Shown one piece after another: positions 5,939 to 42,851 of a stretch of DNA of 50,423 nt. Source of the stretch: a virus (lineage: Duplodnaviria; Caudoviricetes). Each line of letters begins with the position of its first letter. The first letter of the stretch is position 1. The notes beneath the pieces are model-generated. The model was not told where the DNA came from. It ran no database searches and was given only the letters and a program-made list of their open reading frames with translations. The DNA is taken from positions 1 to 50,423 of the IMG/VR virus record IMGVR_UViG_3300025030_000147. One strand, given 5' to 3'. Both the position numbers and the translations under genes were made by a program.

Positions 5939-7581
5939 GCGCTGACCCTCCCCATTGCTGAATTGACCCGTGCGGCCAGCGCCTCAGCGTCGGCCCGCCC
6001 GAGTGTCTGTGCTGTCAGAATATCCACCCCGAAGGTATGGTAGAACCGGCGGTGCAGCACGCGGTCCGGCTCGCCCAGGTACCGGCGCCATCCGCCGTAC
6101 CAGCTTATTGCTTCCCGCAACACCGTCTGCGCCCGCTGTCGTTCCTCATGCTGGTTGGCGGCCCCCTTGGCTACAGGGTACGGCTTGCCGGCCATCTGTA
6201 GGCCGCGCATCACCGCGTCAGGGTGGCGGTCTATCCGCTCTATCTCCCCGCGCATCGCCGCCAGCGTCTCGGCGTCCAGCTCACACAGGTCACCATCGAC
6301 CATCTCCGGTGCGGTCCGGCCGGCGGGTACCGGCACCCACCCACAGAATGGGCAGGCCGGATACACAGCCTCGTAGGGCGCCAGGCAGATGGGATTCAGA
6401 CAGTTGCGCAACGGGATAAGCCCATCATCCGTCTTGCTGCCCGACCGCTTTTCCTTGCGGTCCAGCGTCCAGGTGCGAGGGCGGTCTGGTAAACCGTGAC
6501 GCAGCACGTTGCCTACGTGGTCTATGATGATCGCCCGCTCCTTGCCCTCCAACAGCCGCAGAGCACGACCAAACTGCTGGATATACAGTCCGTAAGACTG
6601 CGTTGCGCGAGCCATTGTGACCACCTCGACTGCCGGGATGTCCACCCCCTCGCCGAACAGATCTACGTTGACGAGCTGCAGCAACTCACGGCGCTCGAAC
6701 CGGCGCATGATCTCCACACGCATCTTGTCGGGGGTCTGTGCGGTCACGACCTCGGCCGGTACACCCGCCTGGTTGAACATCGCGGAGAATTGGGTGGCGG
6801 TTTCCACGTCCGGCGCAAAGGTGATCCCGAGGGCGCCCGGGGCGATCCGCAAGTAGTGGTCTACCACATGGCCCATTACGGTGGATTTCTGCGTCTTGAG
6901 AGCGAGCTGGCCGCGCACATAGTCGCCATCCGCCCCGGTCGCTACGCTGGACAGGTCCAGATCGCTCGGTGGGCAGAAGATACGGTACTCAGTGAGGTAC
7001 CCCGCGGTGATCAGGTCGCGCATCCCCGGTCCCTCAACCATGAAGTCGAACAGCCCATCAGCGTGTCGCCCGAGCCCCTTACCGTCCGCGCGCTCCGGTG
7101 TGGCGGTCACACCCAGGCCGCGAGCGTTGGGGAACATGGCGACCGCTTTGCCCCATTGGTTGTTCTTAATGAGGTGATGCGATTCATCTAGTACCCAAAG
7201 CGTCACCTGGTTCGCCCAATGAGCCAATTTGTCGGCCCGGCTGACCAACGTACCGACCCCTGCCACCGCACACGGCGCCTGGGGGTCGTAGAAGTCACGA
7301 CCGAATTTCTGGATGTGCGTGGACACTATATTGCGAACCACATTACTGGGTGCAATGATACGATGCCTGATGCCATAACTACCTAAAGTACGGGACATTT
7401 GACCAACAAGCTCTTGGCGATGCGCGATTGCGACAGAGTGGCCCTGGTGGTTTGACAGAGCCTTAGCAAACAGGACTGTCTTGCCAGATCCGGTCGGGCT
7501 CACCACCAGTCCATTGAGTGCGCCGAGCCACCCGGCGTACAGTTCTATCAGTGCTTTGTCTTGGTAGGGTCGAAGTATCAT
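5935..7581 (-). CDS. Superfamily 2 (DExH, RadD/YejH-like) helicase with C-terminal zinc finger
   Basis: LRPYQ, SPTGSGKT, DESHH, TATP, EGVDIP, QQFGRALR; CxxxxC...CxxC. Confidence 0.93.
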   Translation of the reverse strand: MILRPYQDKALIELYAGWLGALNGLVVSPTGSGKTVLFAKALSNHQGHSVAIAHRQELVGQMSRTLGSYGIRHRIIAPSNVVRNIVSTHIQKFGRDFYDPQAPCAVAGVGTLVSRADKLAHWANQVTLWVLDESHHLIKNNQWGKAVAMFPNARGLGVTATPERADGKGLGRHADGLFDFMVEGPGMRDLITAGYLTEYRIFCPPSDLDLSSVATGADGDYVRGQLALKTQKSTVMGHVVDHYLRIAPGALGITFAPDVETATQFSAMFNQAGVPAEVVTAQTPDKMRVEIMRRFERRELLQLVNVDLFGEGVDIPAVEVVTMARATQSYGLYIQQFGRALRLLEGKERAIIIDHVGNVLRHGLPDRPRTWTLDRKEKRSGSKTDDGLIPLRNCLNPICLAPYEAVYPACPFCGWVPVPAGRTAPEMVDGDLCELDAETLAAMRGEIERIDRHPDAVMRGLQMAGKPYPVAKGAANQHEERQRAQTVLREAISWYGGWRRYLGEPDRVLHRRFYHTFGVDILTAQTLGRADAEALAARVNSAMGRVSA

Positions 7582-37866: not shown

Positions 37867-38943
37867 TTAGTTACCCCCTTTGGCGAGAGCGATGGCGGCC
37901 TGCAGGTCGTCCTCGCTGGCTACCGGCTGTGCCGGGTCGTACTGCGCCTGCTGCTGTGCCGGCGTAGCACCCTGCTGCTCGGTAGCGGTCTGCGCGGCGG
38001 TCTGAGCGTTCATCTGCTTCACGGCATCCACAGCGGCGACGGACGAGGTCAGTTCCACCTGGGACGCCTCACCCTTGAGCACCTTGAGGGCGGTCTGCCC
38101 GATGATCGGCGGGTACTCGGTACTCGCCATGATGGGAGCGACGGAGTTGATCACCGCCTGCAGCTCCTGTTTCCCCTCGGTACGGGCGGCATTAAGCGCC
38201 TGGTCGTACTCGGCCTTGGCCGCGGGGTTTGCATCCAGCAATTCTTTCAATGCCATCTGCACTTCCTCCTTTTTGGGTTTTCCCGCGGCCACTGCTGCGG
38301 GGGGTTGAATCGACGGCATGATTGCCATCGCTTGTGCGAAGTCTTTACGGGCCTCTGCCGGGTCAGCAGACCATTTGGCGTATGCCTCATGGTAGATCGC
38401 CTGTGCGGCGGCGAGGCAAGCCTCCTGATCGCCGTCATCCTCGGTTTCGATGATCTCATCCACAAACCCGTGGGTGAGCATTTCGTCACCGAAGAAAAAC
38501 GTCTCCTTGTCCATCATTTCAGCGAGTTCATCCACCGACTTGCCGGTGCGCTTGGCGTACTGCTTGGCGAGCAGACCGGAGAGCCCTTTGGTAAACTGCC
38601 CGTAGGCGAGTATGTCGTTGTGGTCACCCCACACGCCGCCGCGGGCGTTGTGGATCATGTACACGGCGTTGTCGTGAGCCTTAACCTTATCGCAGGCCAG
38701 CGGAATGTAGCTCGCCATGCTCATGGCAAAGCCGGACAGGACCGCCGTGGTTTCCCCACCGTAGTTGCGAATCAGGTTGAAAATCTCCAAACCCTGAGAG
38801 ATAAAACCGCCCGGGCTGGACACGTCAAACTCGACAGCTTCACCGTTGGCGGCCTGCAATTCCTCCCGCACACCCCTCGCAGTGGTATCCCATCCGATGA
38901 TGCCGGTAATTGCTATTTTCTTCGCCAAGGCTACCCCCTTCAT
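37867..38943 (-). CDS. ClpP-like prohead protease with C-terminal scaffold (start may be TTG 38928)
   Basis: SSPGG, AMSMASYI, YMIHNA, GFVDEI. Confidence 0.9.
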   Translation of the reverse strand: MKGVALAKKIAITGIIGWDTTARGVREELQAANGEAVEFDVSSPGGFISQGLEIFNLIRNYGGETTAVLSGFAMSMASYIPLACDKVKAHDNAVYMIHNARGGVWGDHNDILAYGQFTKGLSGLLAKQYAKRTGKSVDELAEMMDKETFFFGDEMLTHGFVDEIIETEDDGDQEACLAAAQAIYHEAYAKWSADPAEARKDFAQAMAIMPSIQPPAAVAAGKPKKEEVQMALKELLDANPAAKAEYDQALNAARTEGKQELQAVINSVAPIMASTEYPPIIGQTALKVLKGEASQVELTSSVAAVDAVKQMNAQTAAQTATEQQGATPAQQQAQYDPAQPVASEDDLQAAIALAKGGN

Positions 38944-38948
38944 AAAAG

Positions 38949-39070
38949 TTATCCACAGGGTTAAAAGGCAAATTTGGAGCTTGGTTTTTCGCTAGTAATA
39001 CCAGCTAATTACACCGCTCGACCTGTGGATAACCTGTGGATTCGTGTGGATAACTTTTTATTTATCCACA
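38949..39070. promoter_or_regulatory. Cluster of DnaA boxes: 4 perfect (38949-57 +, 39024-32 -, 39045-53 -, 39062-70 +) and 1 imperfect (39035-43)
   Basis: Exact TTATCCACA/TGTGGATAA matches. Confidence 0.85.
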
Positions 39071-39095
39071 AAATGCTATTTCTAGGCTCGCGCGC

Positions 39096-39124
39096 ACGGT
39101 ACAACCGACTCATTAAAAAGTCAA
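39096..39124 (-). promoter_or_regulatory. Putative sigma70 promoter for head operon (TTGACT-17-TACCGT)
   Basis: Same architecture as the promoters at 29885 and 43140. Confidence 0.55.
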
Positions 39125-39127
39125 GTC

Positions 39128-39289
39128 TTATTTCAGTAGCGGTATGGTATTGCCGCTTGCCGCCGGAGATGTCGTCACGGATTTGGGTTGCTCGATGGTC
39201 AGATTGTTATCGTTGCCCGATACCGTGACGTTGATGGTCGAGCATCCAGCTAGCGCGACGCCAAAAATTAACAGTAAAAGTTTTTTCAT
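39128..39289 (-). CDS. 53-aa lipoprotein, not in ORF track
   Basis: MKKLLLLIFGVALAG-C lipobox; AGGAG RBS. Confidence 0.75.
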   Translation of the reverse strand: MKKLLLLIFGVALAGCSTINVTVSGNDNNLTIEQPKSVTTSPAASGNTIPLLK

Positions 39290-39524
39290 TTTTCAGTCTC
39301 CTGTATCGCCTGCTCCAACATCTCATCGCACGCATTGGACCAGTATTCGTATTCCGCATGGACCGCGCCGTACCAGGGGTCGTACAAACTGATTGAGTTT
39401 TGCAAATCACCCCACAACTTAGCCTGCTCACAGACGGCGATATGTATTTCTACGTCCATGTAGTCGTGGGCGGAACTATCGTGGGGGAAAGCAGCATGAC
39501 GACGATCATCAGGATAATTTTCAT
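39286..39524 (-). pseudogene. Frameshifted small secreted protein
   Basis: Signal-like MKIILMIVVMLLSP stops after 24 aa; one extra C in the C5 run would join it to a frame ending at the next ATGA. Confidence 0.5.
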
Positions 39525-39688
39525 TTTCGCAGCTCCCATAAGACCTTGACCGCCACCGTGTTGACCTTGGCGGGTGACTCTCCTACTTCATGCCGGACAC
39601 TGGTACCTGCTTCAAGACCCACCGTTTTGGGGCAGGCAACTGACGTGCAGCCGGTCAACAGCAGACACCACACAGCTAACCACCGCAC
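39521..39688 (-). CDS. 55-aa lipoprotein, not in ORF track
   Basis: MRWLAVWCLLLTG-C lipobox; GGAGG RBS. Confidence 0.72.
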   Translation of the reverse strand: MRWLAVWCLLLTGCTSVACPKTVGLEAGTSVRHEVGESPAKVNTVAVKVLWELRK

Positions 39689-40236
39689 GCAGCGAGCCTC
39701 CTGATATAAACGTCGATACCATGATCCTTCACGTCGATACCGCCATCACGGTCGTGGAGGACTACCGCATCGCAGGTATGTTTGTAGAGTATCCTGGGGA
39801 CCATTGTCACGGGGTCGTCGTCACAGACTATTCGAGTGTGCTCGATGGTGGGTGGCGGCGCTCCAAAACGGTAGTCATTTCTGAGGCACCCGAAGGTGGT
39901 CACGGGGAGGCGCAGCGCCCGGGCAAAATTCAGCGCAAGGCCGCCACCGAAAGAATGCCCGGTGACATGGACGTTATTGAGGGAGGCGCCGTACAGTTTT
40001 GCGATAACGTGGTCCCAAAGGACGTGTTCGGCCCGCGCTACACCGCCGTGCGAGAGGTATCCCGATCTACTGCGAAGCGGCACCACGAACAGATCACGCA
40101 TGACGTTGCGCCAGTTAGCCGTGCCACGAAAGACAAGGGTGCTGCCGATCAAACCAAAACGCAGATCCCCGACAGTAGTAAATCGAGGGTCTGCGTCATT
40201 GTAGCTCGCCTTGCACAGAATCGCTTTTTGCAGCAT
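39676..40236 (-). CDS. Class 3 lipase (alpha/beta hydrolase)
   Basis: LVFRGT, HGG, VHVTGHSFGG (GxSxG), TFG, DPVTMVP, terminal DH..Y: full Ser-Asp-His triad. Confidence 0.88.
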   Translation of the reverse strand: MLQKAILCKASYNDADPRFTTVGDLRFGLIGSTLVFRGTANWRNVMRDLFVVPLRSRSGYLSHGGVARAEHVLWDHVIAKLYGASLNNVHVTGHSFGGGLALNFARALRLPVTTFGCLRNDYRFGAPPPTIEHTRIVCDDDPVTMVPRILYKHTCDAVVLHDRDGGIDVKDHGIDVYIRRLAACGG

Positions 40237-40360
40237 CGGTCCGCTCCTTTTCAAGTCGATCACGTTTGGTCCGGCAGGCTACCGCTGGCACCTTAACGCA
40301 CGCATTAAATTTTCCAGCATGTTCGCACGTTCCACCTATGAAGTTGCAGTGCCCTGGCAT
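40196..40360 (-). CDS. 54-aa Cys-rich hypothetical protein, not in ORF track
   Basis: GGAG RBS; bridges endolysin and lipase. Confidence 0.4.
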   Translation of the reverse strand: MPGHCNFIGGTCEHAGKFNACVKVPAVACRTKRDRLEKERTDAAKSDSVQGELQ

Positions 40361-40974
40361 GACAGTATCTCCGTGATCCGGTTGTACCGTGCTTTACGGT
40401 CGTCCAAGCCCATCAGACCACCGTTGATCCTCACCGTGAGCGTTTTCATGTCGACGACATCAGCTAGAGCATTCAATTCTCGTGTTTTCCAGTACCAGCA
40501 CGCCGACTCGACGGCGCCCTGTTTGGTCTTGAGGTAATCGAGTGTTTCGTCTAAGGTCTTGTTGATGCTGCGGGCAAAGTCGGACTGGTTACCCTTACCT
40601 GTGAGTTGGATCAGACCACGGCCACGGTGGCGGTAGCCGTCACCGGACTCTTCAGGACCATTGCCCATCCTGTTGGCGTAGGCGCGGTTACCGATCCGCT
40701 CGGGCTGGCGGGCGTACTTAGCCGCCACATCGGCGGGAAACCGTTTGGGCCAGGTGCGGGTCAGCGCCTCGGCCGAGTAATTAAGGTTTTCCACCAGCTT
40801 GGTAAACCCGATGCTCTCATGACCGCACTGCGCGAGGAATGCGGCGATACGCAGCTTGCTGTCGATGTGGTAGGTGGGCAGGACTGCGTTCAGCGCAGCG
40901 GCCCACTCAGTCGGCTCCTGTGCGGCCGGGAAACATTTATGGAACTGCTCGGCGCTGATCATTGCACCTGACAC
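40336..40974 (-). CDS. Endolysin, glycoside hydrolase family 19
   Basis: AAFLAQCGHES, ENLNYS, YANRMGNG, RGRGLIQLTG, INGG..GL.DR. Confidence 0.93.
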   Translation of the reverse strand: MSGAMISAEQFHKCFPAAQEPTEWAAALNAVLPTYHIDSKLRIAAFLAQCGHESIGFTKLVENLNYSAEALTRTWPKRFPADVAAKYARQPERIGNRAYANRMGNGPEESGDGYRHRGRGLIQLTGKGNQSDFARSINKTLDETLDYLKTKQGAVESACWYWKTRELNALADVVDMKTLTVRINGGLMGLDDRKARYNRITEILSCQGTATS

Positions 40975-41171
40975 TTTTTACTGCAGCGCCGATGCTCTAT
41001 GAAGCAGAGCATACAGGTGTAGACTTTCGGACCCTGGCGAAGTATCTGAATCAAGGTGTAAATTGCAGTGAGTATGTAGACCCAAATCTGCCACTCAATG
41101 CCAAAAAAGCTGGTCGCTGTGATAAGCGCCGGGGGTACTACTTTCACACTCTCGGTAACGACTTCACGCAT
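40959..41171 (-). CDS. Holin (T7 class II-like)
   Basis: PPALITATSFFGI...WVYILTAIYTLIQI; directly upstream of endolysin. Confidence 0.78.
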   Translation of the reverse strand: MREVVTESVKVVPPALITATSFFGIEWQIWVYILTAIYTLIQILRQGPKVYTCMLCFIEHRRCSKKCQVQ

Positions 41172-41186
41172 CAAACACCCCCAATA

Positions 41187-42851
41187 TTATTCATGATCAT
41201 TCAAAAAAGACTCAAGGCGGTCCATCAGATCGTCCACCCGCGAACGCGCCTGCTGCTGACCGGCGGGGGCAGGGGCAGCCTCGGCTACAGCCGCCTGTGT
41301 CCACGGGGCGTTGACGAACCCCTTGTAGAGCGACTTATTCTTTTCGATGTTTGCCGATGCACTGGACCCGTTCAGATCCCTCGCCTCGCGTTCTAGGTTG
41401 CTGACCCCGATCTCGATGTTCTCGCGGCGGGCCTTTGCGGTCTTAGCCGGGTCGATGTCGGGCGGCGGTGTGCCGATCCAGTTTTTCTTGAGCCAGGCGG
41501 CGCGCAGGCGGGGGTCGGACCACCCTGGAGCGACGATACGTCCGGCGGCAATCTCGCCCGACAGCCACATTTCCACGCACGGGTCCAGATAGTCGCTCGC
41601 CATCTCGTTGCGCCAGATCTGGCAGACGCGCCAGAACAGCAGCAGGGTGGCGCGGGAGGCCGAATAGTTCTGGTTGAACTTCATCAGCACGACTTCCAGC
41701 GGAATGCTCAAGCTGGAGGACAGGTGGCTGGCAAACGCATCCACAAAGGTGTCGAACTTATCGCCCGGTGCCGAGTTGGGGAACGGTTTAAGGGTGGACC
41801 CTTTGGTGAGGTTGGCAACGACCATTGACCCCGGTGTGTTACTGGTCGCCTCGGGTATCCTTGACACCGCCGTGACGCCCGGGTACAATTGTTCAACTGG
41901 CTCGGATGGTGTCACCTGACTGACCGGCGGCGCGGCAGGGCCGGCTCCCTGACCGGTCAGGATGCCCTCGAACACGTTGACAGCATCCTCGTCCTCGGAC
42001 GGCTCGATGAACGCCACGAAACCAGCTTGGTTGATCGCCTTTTTGATACTGGCCGCCGAGAAATCGGTGATGTTCTCGAACTCCTGAATTGCGTGCGCCA
42101 GGCGGGAGTATCCGCGGCCTTGACCGGCGTACTCGGGGCGGAACCCGTGCAGCATGAAGATCCTGCCGGACTTGTCGGTGGCGGGGATGGTCACAGGGGT
42201 GAAATTGCCCTCAGTGTCCCTCACCCAAATCTTGTAGCCCGTCTCTCTACCGTTGGCGTCCCGCTCGATGCCGTCCTTTCCGAGTTGGAAACCCCAACTG
42301 GAGGTGTAAGCATCGCCGCGCACCTGGTCGGGGTCAATGAACTCCCACTGCAGGGGATTCTGGAGCCCGGGGTCGTTACTGTAGAAGAACCGCACGAAGA
42401 TGTCGTTATCGCGGTGCTGGAAAAGCTGGTAGAGGTTCTGTGACTGGTACCAGGTCAGGTTCCCTGCGCGGTGCTGTTTCTTGTCGCGCGCCCACAGGTC
42501 GAACCGCTCACCGACATCGTGCGCCCACTCGGCGGCACGCTCGGGAGTGATGCCTAGGATCTCGCAACAGGGGGTAAGTTCTAGGCGCAGACCGGTATCG
42601 GCCACGGTGTCTGCGAACCGCTCCACGATGGCACGGGCCTGCATGGAGTCGTTCATGGCAGCGCGGGCGTTCCGGCGCGCCTCGGTGTGGCTCACGTAGG
42701 TGGTGCGACCGCTGGCTGACAGACCGGCGGGCCACTTGCTGCCCCCGCGGTCGCGGATGGTGAAGGTCGATGCATCGTCATACGCCTGGGGCGCTGCGGG
42801 AGTGCCCGCCCAACCAGACATTTTGCCGGCGAACCAGGAAATGATGCTCAT
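41187..42851 (-). CDS. Portal protein (lambda gpB family)
   Basis: DGIE.D..GR..GY, GQGRG, NYSASRA..L, IDPAK motifs. Confidence 0.92.
   Translation of the reverse strand: MSIISWFAGKMSGWAGTPAAPQAYDDASTFTIRDRGGSKWPAGLSASGRTTYVSHTEARRNARAAMNDSMQARAIVERFADTVADTGLRLELTPCCEILGITPERAAEWAHDVGERFDLWARDKKQHRAGNLTWYQSQNLYQLFQHRDNDIFVRFFYSNDPGLQNPLQWEFIDPDQVRGDAYTSSWGFQLGKDGIERDANGRETGYKIWVRDTEGNFTPVTIPATDKSGRIFMLHGFRPEYAGQGRGYSRLAHAIQEFENITDFSAASIKKAINQAGFVAFIEPSEDEDAVNVFEGILTGQGAGPAAPPVSQVTPSEPVEQLYPGVTAVSRIPEATSNTPGSMVVANLTKGSTLKPFPNSAPGDKFDTFVDAFASHLSSSLSIPLEVVLMKFNQNYSASRATLLLFWRVCQIWRNEMASDYLDPCVEMWLSGEIAAGRIVAPGWSDPRLRAAWLKKNWIGTPPPDIDPAKTAKARRENIEIGVSNLEREARDLNGSSASANIEKNKSLYKGFVNAPWTQAAVAEAAPAPAGQQQARSRVDDLMDRLESFLNDHE

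Follow-up and report, generated by a model that had tools for sequence, protein, structure and literature searches.

Organisation of the lysis cassette

The viral record IMGVR_UViG_3300025030_000147 (Duplodnaviria; Caudoviricetes) was analysed over its whole length of 50,423 bases (hereafter the window; CheckV completeness 100%). Between positions 39128 and 41171 it carries a block of genes in which a class 3 lipase and two mini-lipoproteins, here designated lpp55 and lpp53, are encoded together with a holin and an endolysin. Comparative evidence from viral contigs supported the presence of a lysis-linked lipolytic module, and lipid cleavage may help these phages to open the outer membrane. 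The block fills the slot between the portal and prohead protease genes and consists of eight tightly packed open reading frames (ORFs) on the minus strand, the first of which begins 13 nucleotides (nt) past the portal stop codon. The junctions are ATGA overlaps or, otherwise, overlaps of 10 to 41 nt, which bore out the overlapping and coupled arrangement proposed in a preliminary description made from the sequence letters. A clear Shine-Dalgarno sequence lies 7-8 nt upstream of five of the eight ORFs. When codon usage learned from 12 long genes of this phage was applied to the cassette, all eight ORFs scored best in their own frames, with a thin margin for a Cys-rich ORF.

The standard lysis genes of the block are a T7-type holin and a soluble GH19-type endolysin. 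The holin (40959-41171, minus strand; 70 amino acids (aa) from the ATG at 41171) matched PF10746 with an E-value of 2.5e-9 (37.2 bits, cut-off 25.4) and the holin family phrog_920 with 3.2e-13; its hydrophobic core comprises residues 29-43, and its stop codon overlaps the endolysin start as ATGA. The endolysin (40336-40962, minus strand, 208 aa) matched the endolysin family phrog_181 at 5.3e-75 and the Pfam GH19 profile with 24.6 bits, just below the cut-off of 25.5. It is 46-49% identical to annotated phage endolysins, contains neither a signal peptide nor a signal-anchor-release segment, and has a low maximum hydropathy. Both assignments had been made in the preliminary description. The block is best interpreted as a late lysis cassette, carried by a phage of myovirus-like type.

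Two runs of a groundwater-metagenome study contain the cassette stretch. Positions 38900-41300 were identical (0 differences) in the Logan contigs of two runs, from two samples of one study that is possibly the record's own source, and the reading frames of the cassette are therefore not an obvious assembly error. No RNA runs containing the stretch were listed in the run search.

The lipase gene encodes an intact class 3 enzyme

The lipase gene (39676-40236, minus strand, 186 aa) begins with an ATG behind AGGAG, 99 nt past the endolysin stop codon on the same strand. The encoded compact protein matched PF01764 over residues 43-157 with 25.1 bits (cut-off 22) and the esterase/lipase family phrog_21992 at 3.3e-10. 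Ser95, which lies in the nucleophile elbow GHSFGG, Asp141 and His172 were invariant in 42 aligned relatives, and the alignment to the Rhizomucor miehei lipase spans the elbow. The AlphaFold2 model reached a predicted local distance difference test score (pLDDT) of 93.2 and a predicted template-modelling score of 0.91. When this model was compared with the PDB by Foldseek, 63 matches were obtained at E≤1e-3, the best of which (approximately 5e-7) were feruloyl esterase A, fungal lipases and plant phospholipase A1; class 3 lipases from giant viruses and uncultured tailed phages also belonged to the best structural matches of the model. Apart from Lipase_3, the Pfam scan listed just Abhydrolase_6 and Thioesterase, and neither a cutinase nor a PE-PPE domain matched. 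Profile, triad and modelled fold thus identify the product as an intact class 3 lipase with predicted lipolytic activity, and the full triad claimed in the preliminary description was confirmed.

Neither a signal peptide nor a transmembrane domain (TMD) was found in the lipase, so that the enzyme would need the membrane lesion made by the holin to leave the cytoplasm. In this respect it resembles the endolysin, which is of similar size (approximately 23 kDa against 21 kDa for the lipase) and likewise has no signal peptide. A 331-nt soil-metagenome contig from another study was 94% identical over the start of the lipase gene, and eight of the 11 listed differences inside the gene fell at third codon positions when worked out by hand.

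Mini-lipoproteins of the lpp55 family adjoin lipolytic genes of two folds

The genes of the two lipoproteins, both of which had been predicted earlier, lie downstream of the lipase gene on the same strand. The 55-aa lpp55 (39521-39688) starts with GTG, with AGGAGG 8 nt before it, and has the lipobox LLTGC and a mature part of approximately 41 aa. The 53-aa lpp53 (39128-39289) has AGGAG 8 nt upstream, an ATGA overlap, the lipobox LAGC and a mature part of approximately 38 aa with no further Cys. A profile search of a 5.8-billion-protein collection placed lpp55 in a family of 19 clusters (53-74 aa) with no name or Pfam domain. The lipobox is present in all of them, the lipobox Cys and nine other positions are invariant, and the mature part ends in W-E/R-L-R. 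The AlphaFold2 model built on the family alignment, of moderate confidence (pLDDT 72.5), predicted a signal helix followed by a two-stranded hairpin (19-32/40-52), and in the alignment the strands alternate hydrophobic and polar residues. A complex prediction for the lipase with mature lpp55 gave a score of 0.00, which is uninformative either way. For lpp53, one homologue was found, a 63-aa lipoprotein in the lysis cassette of locus L121 (phmmer 6.3e-6); a further scan returned the L121 contig only.

Homologues of lpp55 adjoin the lipase gene in L117 (a 102.7-kb contig; phmmer 3.4e-18) and L134 (2.9e-13), whose lipases are only 40% and 49% identical, respectively, to that of the window; L134 shares its contig with L014, a relative by portal protein. 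In a reciprocal test, IMG/VR was searched outward from the lpp55 family, and six loci were obtained. The lpp55-family gene adjoins a class 3 lipase gene in L194 and L195, loci of the L117 type, and a relative of phrog_1158/DUF1353 in L193 (3657-4019; 4.6e-9) and L192 (363-767; 4.3e-5). In L011, whose portal protein is 61% identical to that of the window, the portal-protease slot holds a GH108 gene, then a lipoprotein gene, then a DUF1353 gene (7060-7428; 1.6e-21), the product of which has phrog_1158 as its best PHROG match. DUF1353 corresponds to the TtaP family, and phospholipase A2 activity has been measured for TtaP (PMC11525133). The lpp55 family is thus found in the company of two unrelated lipolytic folds, class 3 lipase and DUF1353, and of all the present evidence this speaks most strongly for lipoprotein and lipase forming a functional unit.

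Two further observations concern the same loci. Although phrog_1158 bears the label 'tail assembly chaperone', DUF1353 proteins (phospholipase A2 of the TtaP type) encoded in lysis cassettes match this family best, and the label looks wrong for these members. A second conserved mini-lipoprotein (...PVPVCD...CLKLSD..Y.W) is encoded between the lpp55-like and the lipolytic gene in L117 (3795-3992) and L196 (3605-3832), two loci that carry different enzymes.

Gene neighbourhoods of the related lipases

A HMMER search of 1.84 billion representative proteins with the lipase returned 202 matches at E≤1e-3 and 43 at E≤1e-10, and most of the latter were 180-210 aa long. No match was obtained by tblastn against 50,697 isolate phage records, and species-representative genomes scanned with patterns of the close relatives gave 19 pattern matches, none of which was confirmed. 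The first viral scan, with the lipase as a single protein, found nothing; the later scans used smaller alignments as queries. Two such scans of IMG/VR returned at least 499 and at least 461 relatives of class 3 lipases, the best 80 of each being kept. Together with the earlier loci these made up 173 loci, 171 of which had a lipase ORF, and the lipases formed 103 clusters at 90% identity. They divided cleanly into group A, the compact, signal-less family that includes the lipase of the window (23 clusters, profile scores of at least 188), and group B, with longer proteins (80 clusters, scores 65-130).

In 16 of the 23 group A clusters, a gene for a Pfam peptidoglycan hydrolase was present on the same strand at a distance of no more than 1.5 kb. 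The hydrolases belonged to five unrelated types: GH108 (five clusters), M15/VanY (five), CHAP (four, one below the cut-off), GH24 (one) and GH19 (one). In L134, the lpp55-like gene and the lipase gene are immediately preceded by that of a homologue of the window holin (phmmer 1.2e-10), and this module stands far from the gene of the exported GH108 endolysin of that phage. This separate module, together with the lack of a signal in both the lipase and the endolysin of the window, fits a holin-dependent release. Lipobox ORFs were approximately sevenfold denser close to the group A lipase genes (13 in 44.7 kb up to a distance of 1 kb) than farther away (five in 121.5 kb at 1-4 kb), and 10 of the 23 clusters had at least one by the strict rule, to which L004/5 were added by eye. 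The comparison of viral contigs supports a lysis role of the group A lipases.

In group B, the lipases themselves often carry a lipobox (35 by rule and three by eye, 38 of the 80 clusters), and the neighbouring genes are T4-like and cyanophage-like. Phage class 3 lipases, as these predictions show, are often lipid-anchored outside the cytoplasm; group B does not strengthen the case for a function in lysis. These lipobox-bearing lipases, 240-270 aa in length, are common on marine contigs of T4-like or cyanophage-like character (L009, L010, L042, L051 and approximately 34 more loci), and their genes often come directly after that of a 94-aa protein with two TMDs.

Hardly any of the small neighbours in the related loci could be named by PHROG and Pfam scans. 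In many of these loci, the lipase gene or the lpp55-like gene is followed by that of a small membrane protein that is rich in Gly/Ala, has a basic tail and looks like a holin; this family is absent from the window (L002 5561-5875, L003 5625-5933, L004 5500-5784, L118 4560-4994, L134 4543-4926, L117 4561-4746, L191 546-815 and L192 900-1103). In L002 (4275-4931), L035 (2761-3333) and L196 (2797-3402), the place of the endolysin next to the lipase or lipoprotein gene is taken by proteins of 190-218 aa that share the motif SGKSGWSFG..QFD. They matched no Pfam or PHROG family and may represent an undescribed cell-wall hydrolase.

Search for spanins

The whole record was screened for spanins by applying heuristic hydropathy and lipobox rules to all ORFs of the six frames, each read from all of its possible start codons. 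No i-spanin (an N-terminal TMD followed by a periplasmic, mostly helical part of approximately 80-150 aa) was found in the 50,423-bp record, nor was a lipoprotein with a C-terminal TMD (a u-spanin of the T1 gp11 type); lpp55 and lpp53 have no C-terminal hydrophobic segment. The absence of a coiled-coil i-spanin noted in the preliminary description was therefore borne out for the record as a whole, in which no canonical i- or u-spanin was seen. Neither lipoprotein gene is preceded by an i-spanin gene, and that of lpp53 follows a 57-aa ORF that has no TMD.

Besides lpp55 and lpp53, the only convincing lipobox ORF lies in the tail module and encodes a lipoprotein of 221 aa; a fourth lipobox match, a 44- to 47-aa transmembrane peptide at 43328-43185, looks spurious. 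The sole ORF in which an N-terminal TMD is followed by hydrophilic sequence (74 aa, 33892-33668) also lies in the tail module and adjoins the 221-aa lipoprotein gene, in an order that is the reverse of that of a spanin pair. Together they span 34626-33668 among head-tail genes; the lipoprotein showed a weak match to PF23140 Gp80 (4.3e-6), and the 74-aa protein contains a CxxC motif.

A phage first thought to be spanin-less was later shown to hide nested spanins (bioRxiv 10.1101/2024.01.23.576932). Nested spanin genes such as those of LambdaSo were considered, and no lipobox or TMD ORF was found nested in the endolysin or lipase genes. A u-spanin formed by a frameshift fusion of lpp55 with a 24-aa ORF was unsupported and dropped.

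Small open reading frames of the cassette

The remaining three ORFs of the cassette are small and of uncertain status. The Cys-rich ORF (40196-40360, minus strand; 54 aa, four Cys) overlaps the end of the endolysin gene and the start of the lipase gene. It has GGAG 8 nt before its ATG and a G+C content at third codon positions of 0.47, its own frame was only marginally the best, and no homologue was found among the 173 loci or in the Atlas. The ORF listed in the preliminary description as a Cys-rich peptide is present, and with its thin frame score and lack of a homologue its status as a real gene is uncertain. Unrelated Cys-rich ORFs of 44 to 52 aa occur at a similar position in L006, L034 and L011.

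A hydrophobic 24-aa ORF (39450-39524, minus strand; hydropathy 2.85) is ATGA-coupled to lpp55 and has GGGAG 8 nt upstream. In its region both its own frame and that of the next ORF scored as coding, and whether it is a real gene is uncertain. The start of an acidic 57-aa ORF (39286-39459, minus strand; isoelectric point 4.05, two Cys) overlaps its end; this ORF has no signal peptide, TMD or Shine-Dalgarno sequence, and its own frame scored best in the codon-usage test. In the database search its sole match was itself, on six contigs, and the Atlas gave nothing usable. A 'small secreted ORF' had been described at this place, which fits the 24-aa ORF or a hypothetical -1 fusion and not the signal-less 57-aa ORF. 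A -1 shift at a C5 run (39486-39482) would fuse the two ORFs into a product that looks like a signal peptide, with small residues at the cleavage site; nothing supports such a slip. A sequencing or assembly error splitting the two ORFs is unlikely, as the C5 run is the same in the Logan contigs of both runs.

Genome context and probable host

The gene content indicates a myovirus-like phage. The replication module comprises a primase-polymerase/helicase protein, a DEAD-box helicase and DUF2800; the structural genes encode the terminase, portal, ClpP-type prohead protease, decoration protein and major capsid protein, and the tail genes the sheath, tape measure, baseplate and fibres. No integrase was seen in the record. 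Matches to the endolysin were found by tblastn in 731 phage records. The ten organism names that occurred most often in these were all genera of Proteobacteria, led by Pseudomonas (431). The host is probably a double-membraned proteobacterium with a lipopolysaccharide outer membrane, since the endolysin matches those of proteobacterial phages and the holin belongs to the T7 family.

Among the portal relatives (L011-L027), the interval between the portal and prohead protease genes is a slot whose cargo varies. L013 has nothing in it, L014 has GH108 and a 157-aa protein of unknown function, and L011, L018 and L021/L022 have full lysis cassettes. Two paralogous HNH/endonuclease VII-like genes (47078-46338 and 44376-43774) flank the large terminase gene of the window. 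In the 185-nt gap between the lpp53 and prohead protease genes, four perfect TTATCCACA boxes lie within 122 bp (38949-39070). The window contains five perfect copies of this box, which we take to be the DnaA-box consensus, and 18 matches with no more than one mismatch against 6.8 expected by chance. The cluster could be an origin or a DnaA-controlled promoter.

Discussion

The explanation that we favour is that the holin-released lipase and its lpp55 partner weaken the outer membrane; taken as a whole, and on sequence comparison, we regard it as evenly poised between right and wrong. The signal-less lipase would fold in the cytoplasm and reach the periplasm through the holin lesion alongside the endolysin. 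There it would cut ester-linked acyl chains of envelope lipids, in the simplest case the phospholipids of the inner leaflet of the outer membrane in a phospholipase A-like manner, and the free fatty acids and lysolipids would weaken the outer membrane after the loss of the cell wall. The lipoprotein lpp55 would be exported beforehand and, by enterobacterial sorting rules, be directed to the outer membrane, as it has no Asp at position +2. It could serve as the local partner of the lipase, which it might dock or activate, or it might perturb the membrane by its predicted amphipathic β-hairpin, with lpp53 and the small ORFs as further, less conserved parts of the cassette. Such a module may cover the outer-membrane step in this phage, because no spanin is recognisable in it, and would work beside a spanin-like pair in several relatives.

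Several observations weigh against this explanation. In the reciprocal test, the neighbour of the lpp55-family gene in L196 (3745-4257) matched phrog_1158 weakly (0.005) and DUF1353 of Pfam below the cut-off (0.0049), and no lipolytic gene adjoins that of L191, where the contig starts only 811 nt upstream. In seven of the 23 group A clusters (L002, L003, L005, L008, L035, L128 and L134) no cell-wall enzyme is recognisable in the vicinity, and roughly half of the 23 lack a lipobox ORF. Class 3 lipase genes of phages, as group B indicates, do not in every case belong to a cassette: 125 neighbouring proteins were collected, and among the 85 scanned none matched a lysis PHROG at E≤1e-5. Spanins are diverse and the screens heuristic, which bears on any claim that this phage is spanin-free. 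Finally, in at least four of the 23 group A clusters (L006, L034, L121 and L008) the lipase gene stands beside the gene of a protein with an N-terminal TMD, followed by that of a lipoprotein of approximately 150 aa, a spanin-like pair. The lipase is therefore in general an addition and not a replacement, and its presence is insufficient evidence for a spanin-free mechanism. The preliminary description had read the genes as an alternative system standing in place of Rz/Rz1 and had suggested a survey of spanin co-occurrence in relatives. The cassette position, the family context and the lack of a canonical spanin in the record agree with that reading, and the spanin-like pairs beside related lipases contradict a general replacement of spanins.

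It is unlikely, in our estimate, that the mini-lipoproteins perform the outer-membrane step alone, as a non-canonical spanin or a lipid-anchored membrane-active hairpin, with the lipase acting after lysis to digest membrane debris or vesicles that trap the progeny or to free nutrients. This possibility gains from the conservation of lpp55, which exceeds that of its enzyme neighbour, the latter being replaceable by an unrelated enzyme, as well as from the predicted amphipathic β-hairpin of its mature part and the o-spanin size of lpp53; extracellular action of lysis-released enzymes has also been discussed for other phages (PMC12173070). It suffers from the lack of an inner-membrane partner and of a C-terminal TMD, and the hairpin model is of moderate confidence only. 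That lipoprotein and lipolytic genes are tightly coupled time and again speaks for a joint function.

We think it rather improbable that the lipase is non-lysis cargo (engaged, for example, in host-lipid remodelling or metabolism) in the variable portal-protease slot and that a divergent spanin escaped the screens. The interval is indeed empty in L013 and holds the 157-aa protein by the endolysin in L014, group B lipases lie outside recognisable lysis cassettes, and hidden nested spanins have been found by experiment elsewhere (bioRxiv 10.1101/2024.01.23.576932). Against this, the compact lipase family tracks five cell-wall hydrolase types and a holin, and the all-start six-frame scan revealed neither another convincing lipobox ORF nor a TMD ORF nested within the cassette. 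An effector-inhibitor pair resembling type VI Tle/Tli, in which the lipoprotein would restrain the enzyme until lysis or protect against it, is very improbable: adjacent genes for a lipase and a periplasmic lipoprotein are the classic layout of such pairs and translational coupling would suit a fixed stoichiometry, but the lipase immunity proteins known to us are all far larger than a 41-aa mature peptide, a phage would gain little by inhibiting a late lysis enzyme, and one lipoprotein family would need to inhibit two unrelated enzyme folds.

If the lipase and lpp55 do act together on the outer membrane, they would differ from the spanins (lambda Rz/Rz1, T7 18.5/18.7, T1 gp11) in several respects. 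The lipoprotein genes share with those of spanins their place at the end of the cassette and their small, overlapped and coupled arrangement, and they encode lipoproteins of the outer-membrane type with mature parts of approximately 40 aa. In contrast, the window has neither an inner-membrane coiled-coil subunit nor a C-terminal TMD, and an enzyme gene is interposed, so that membrane fusion cannot be assumed for its lipoproteins. Disruptins are, to our knowledge, neither enzymes nor lipid-anchored, and no cationic peptide comparable to them is evident in the window. The disruptin gp28 of phiKT is a cationic antimicrobial peptide and a spanin alternative (bioRxiv 10.1101/515445).

Mycobacteriophage LysB can be considered the nearest functional analogue, with a different enzyme family and host envelope. 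LysB of Ms6 and D29 is a mycolyl-arabinogalactan esterase that performs a third lysis step on the lipid layer outside the cell wall (PMC5707550). Both systems place a serine esterase gene next to the endolysin gene in a lysis cassette. Unlike LysB, the enzyme of the window belongs to Lipase_3 of Pfam, with no cutinase or PE-PPE match, and is paired with mini-lipoproteins; the host of LysB phages contains mycolic acids, whereas that of the present phage, judged from its genes, is probably a proteobacterium. The typhoid toxin islet offers another parallel, as it encodes a signal-less lipolytic enzyme, TtaP, beside the phage-type muramidase TtsA, a phage-derived cell-wall hydrolase (PMC11525133), and DUF1353 relatives of TtaP adjoin lpp55-family lipoproteins. 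TtaP differs in its unrelated fold with a His/Asp dyad and in serving a bacterial toxin-release system rather than a phage; outer-membrane perturbation is discussed by its authors without demonstration, and no role in release was found in that report (PMC11525133). In a siphovirus of Pseudomonas syringae (Nickievirus), that is, with a Gram-negative host, a GDSL lipase gene adjoins the holin and endolysin genes of a presumed lysis cassette, and outer-membrane perturbation has been proposed (PMC12173070). That enzyme belongs to the SGNH/GDSL family and has a carbohydrate-binding domain, and no lipoprotein partner is described for it.

A further-reaching proposal, which we consider doubtful, is that lipoprotein-guided lipolysis constitutes a third route across the outer membrane after spanins and disruptins and has replaced the spanin altogether in this phage. 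A pre-placed β-hairpin lipoprotein of some 40 residues would then recruit or potentiate a holin-released class 3 lipase or DUF1353 phospholipase A2. The literature searched, with subscription journals outside its coverage, contained no description of a class 3 lipase in phage lysis or of its pairing with a lipoprotein. Approximately 15% of phages of Gram-negative hosts have been reported to lack a recognisable spanin (bioRxiv 10.1101/515445), and only the disruptin has been demonstrated as a spanin alternative; an enzyme-based outer-membrane step, if true, would fill part of this gap and would explain the recurrence of lipases, phospholipase A2-like proteins and small lipoproteins in lysis cassettes. 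The exchange of two unrelated lipolytic enzymes beside one lipoprotein family provides a sharp hypothesis that is open to complementation, and, if it is confirmed, small signal-less lipolytic enzymes with their lipoprotein partner could become tools for controlled lysis or for endolysin-based antibacterials.

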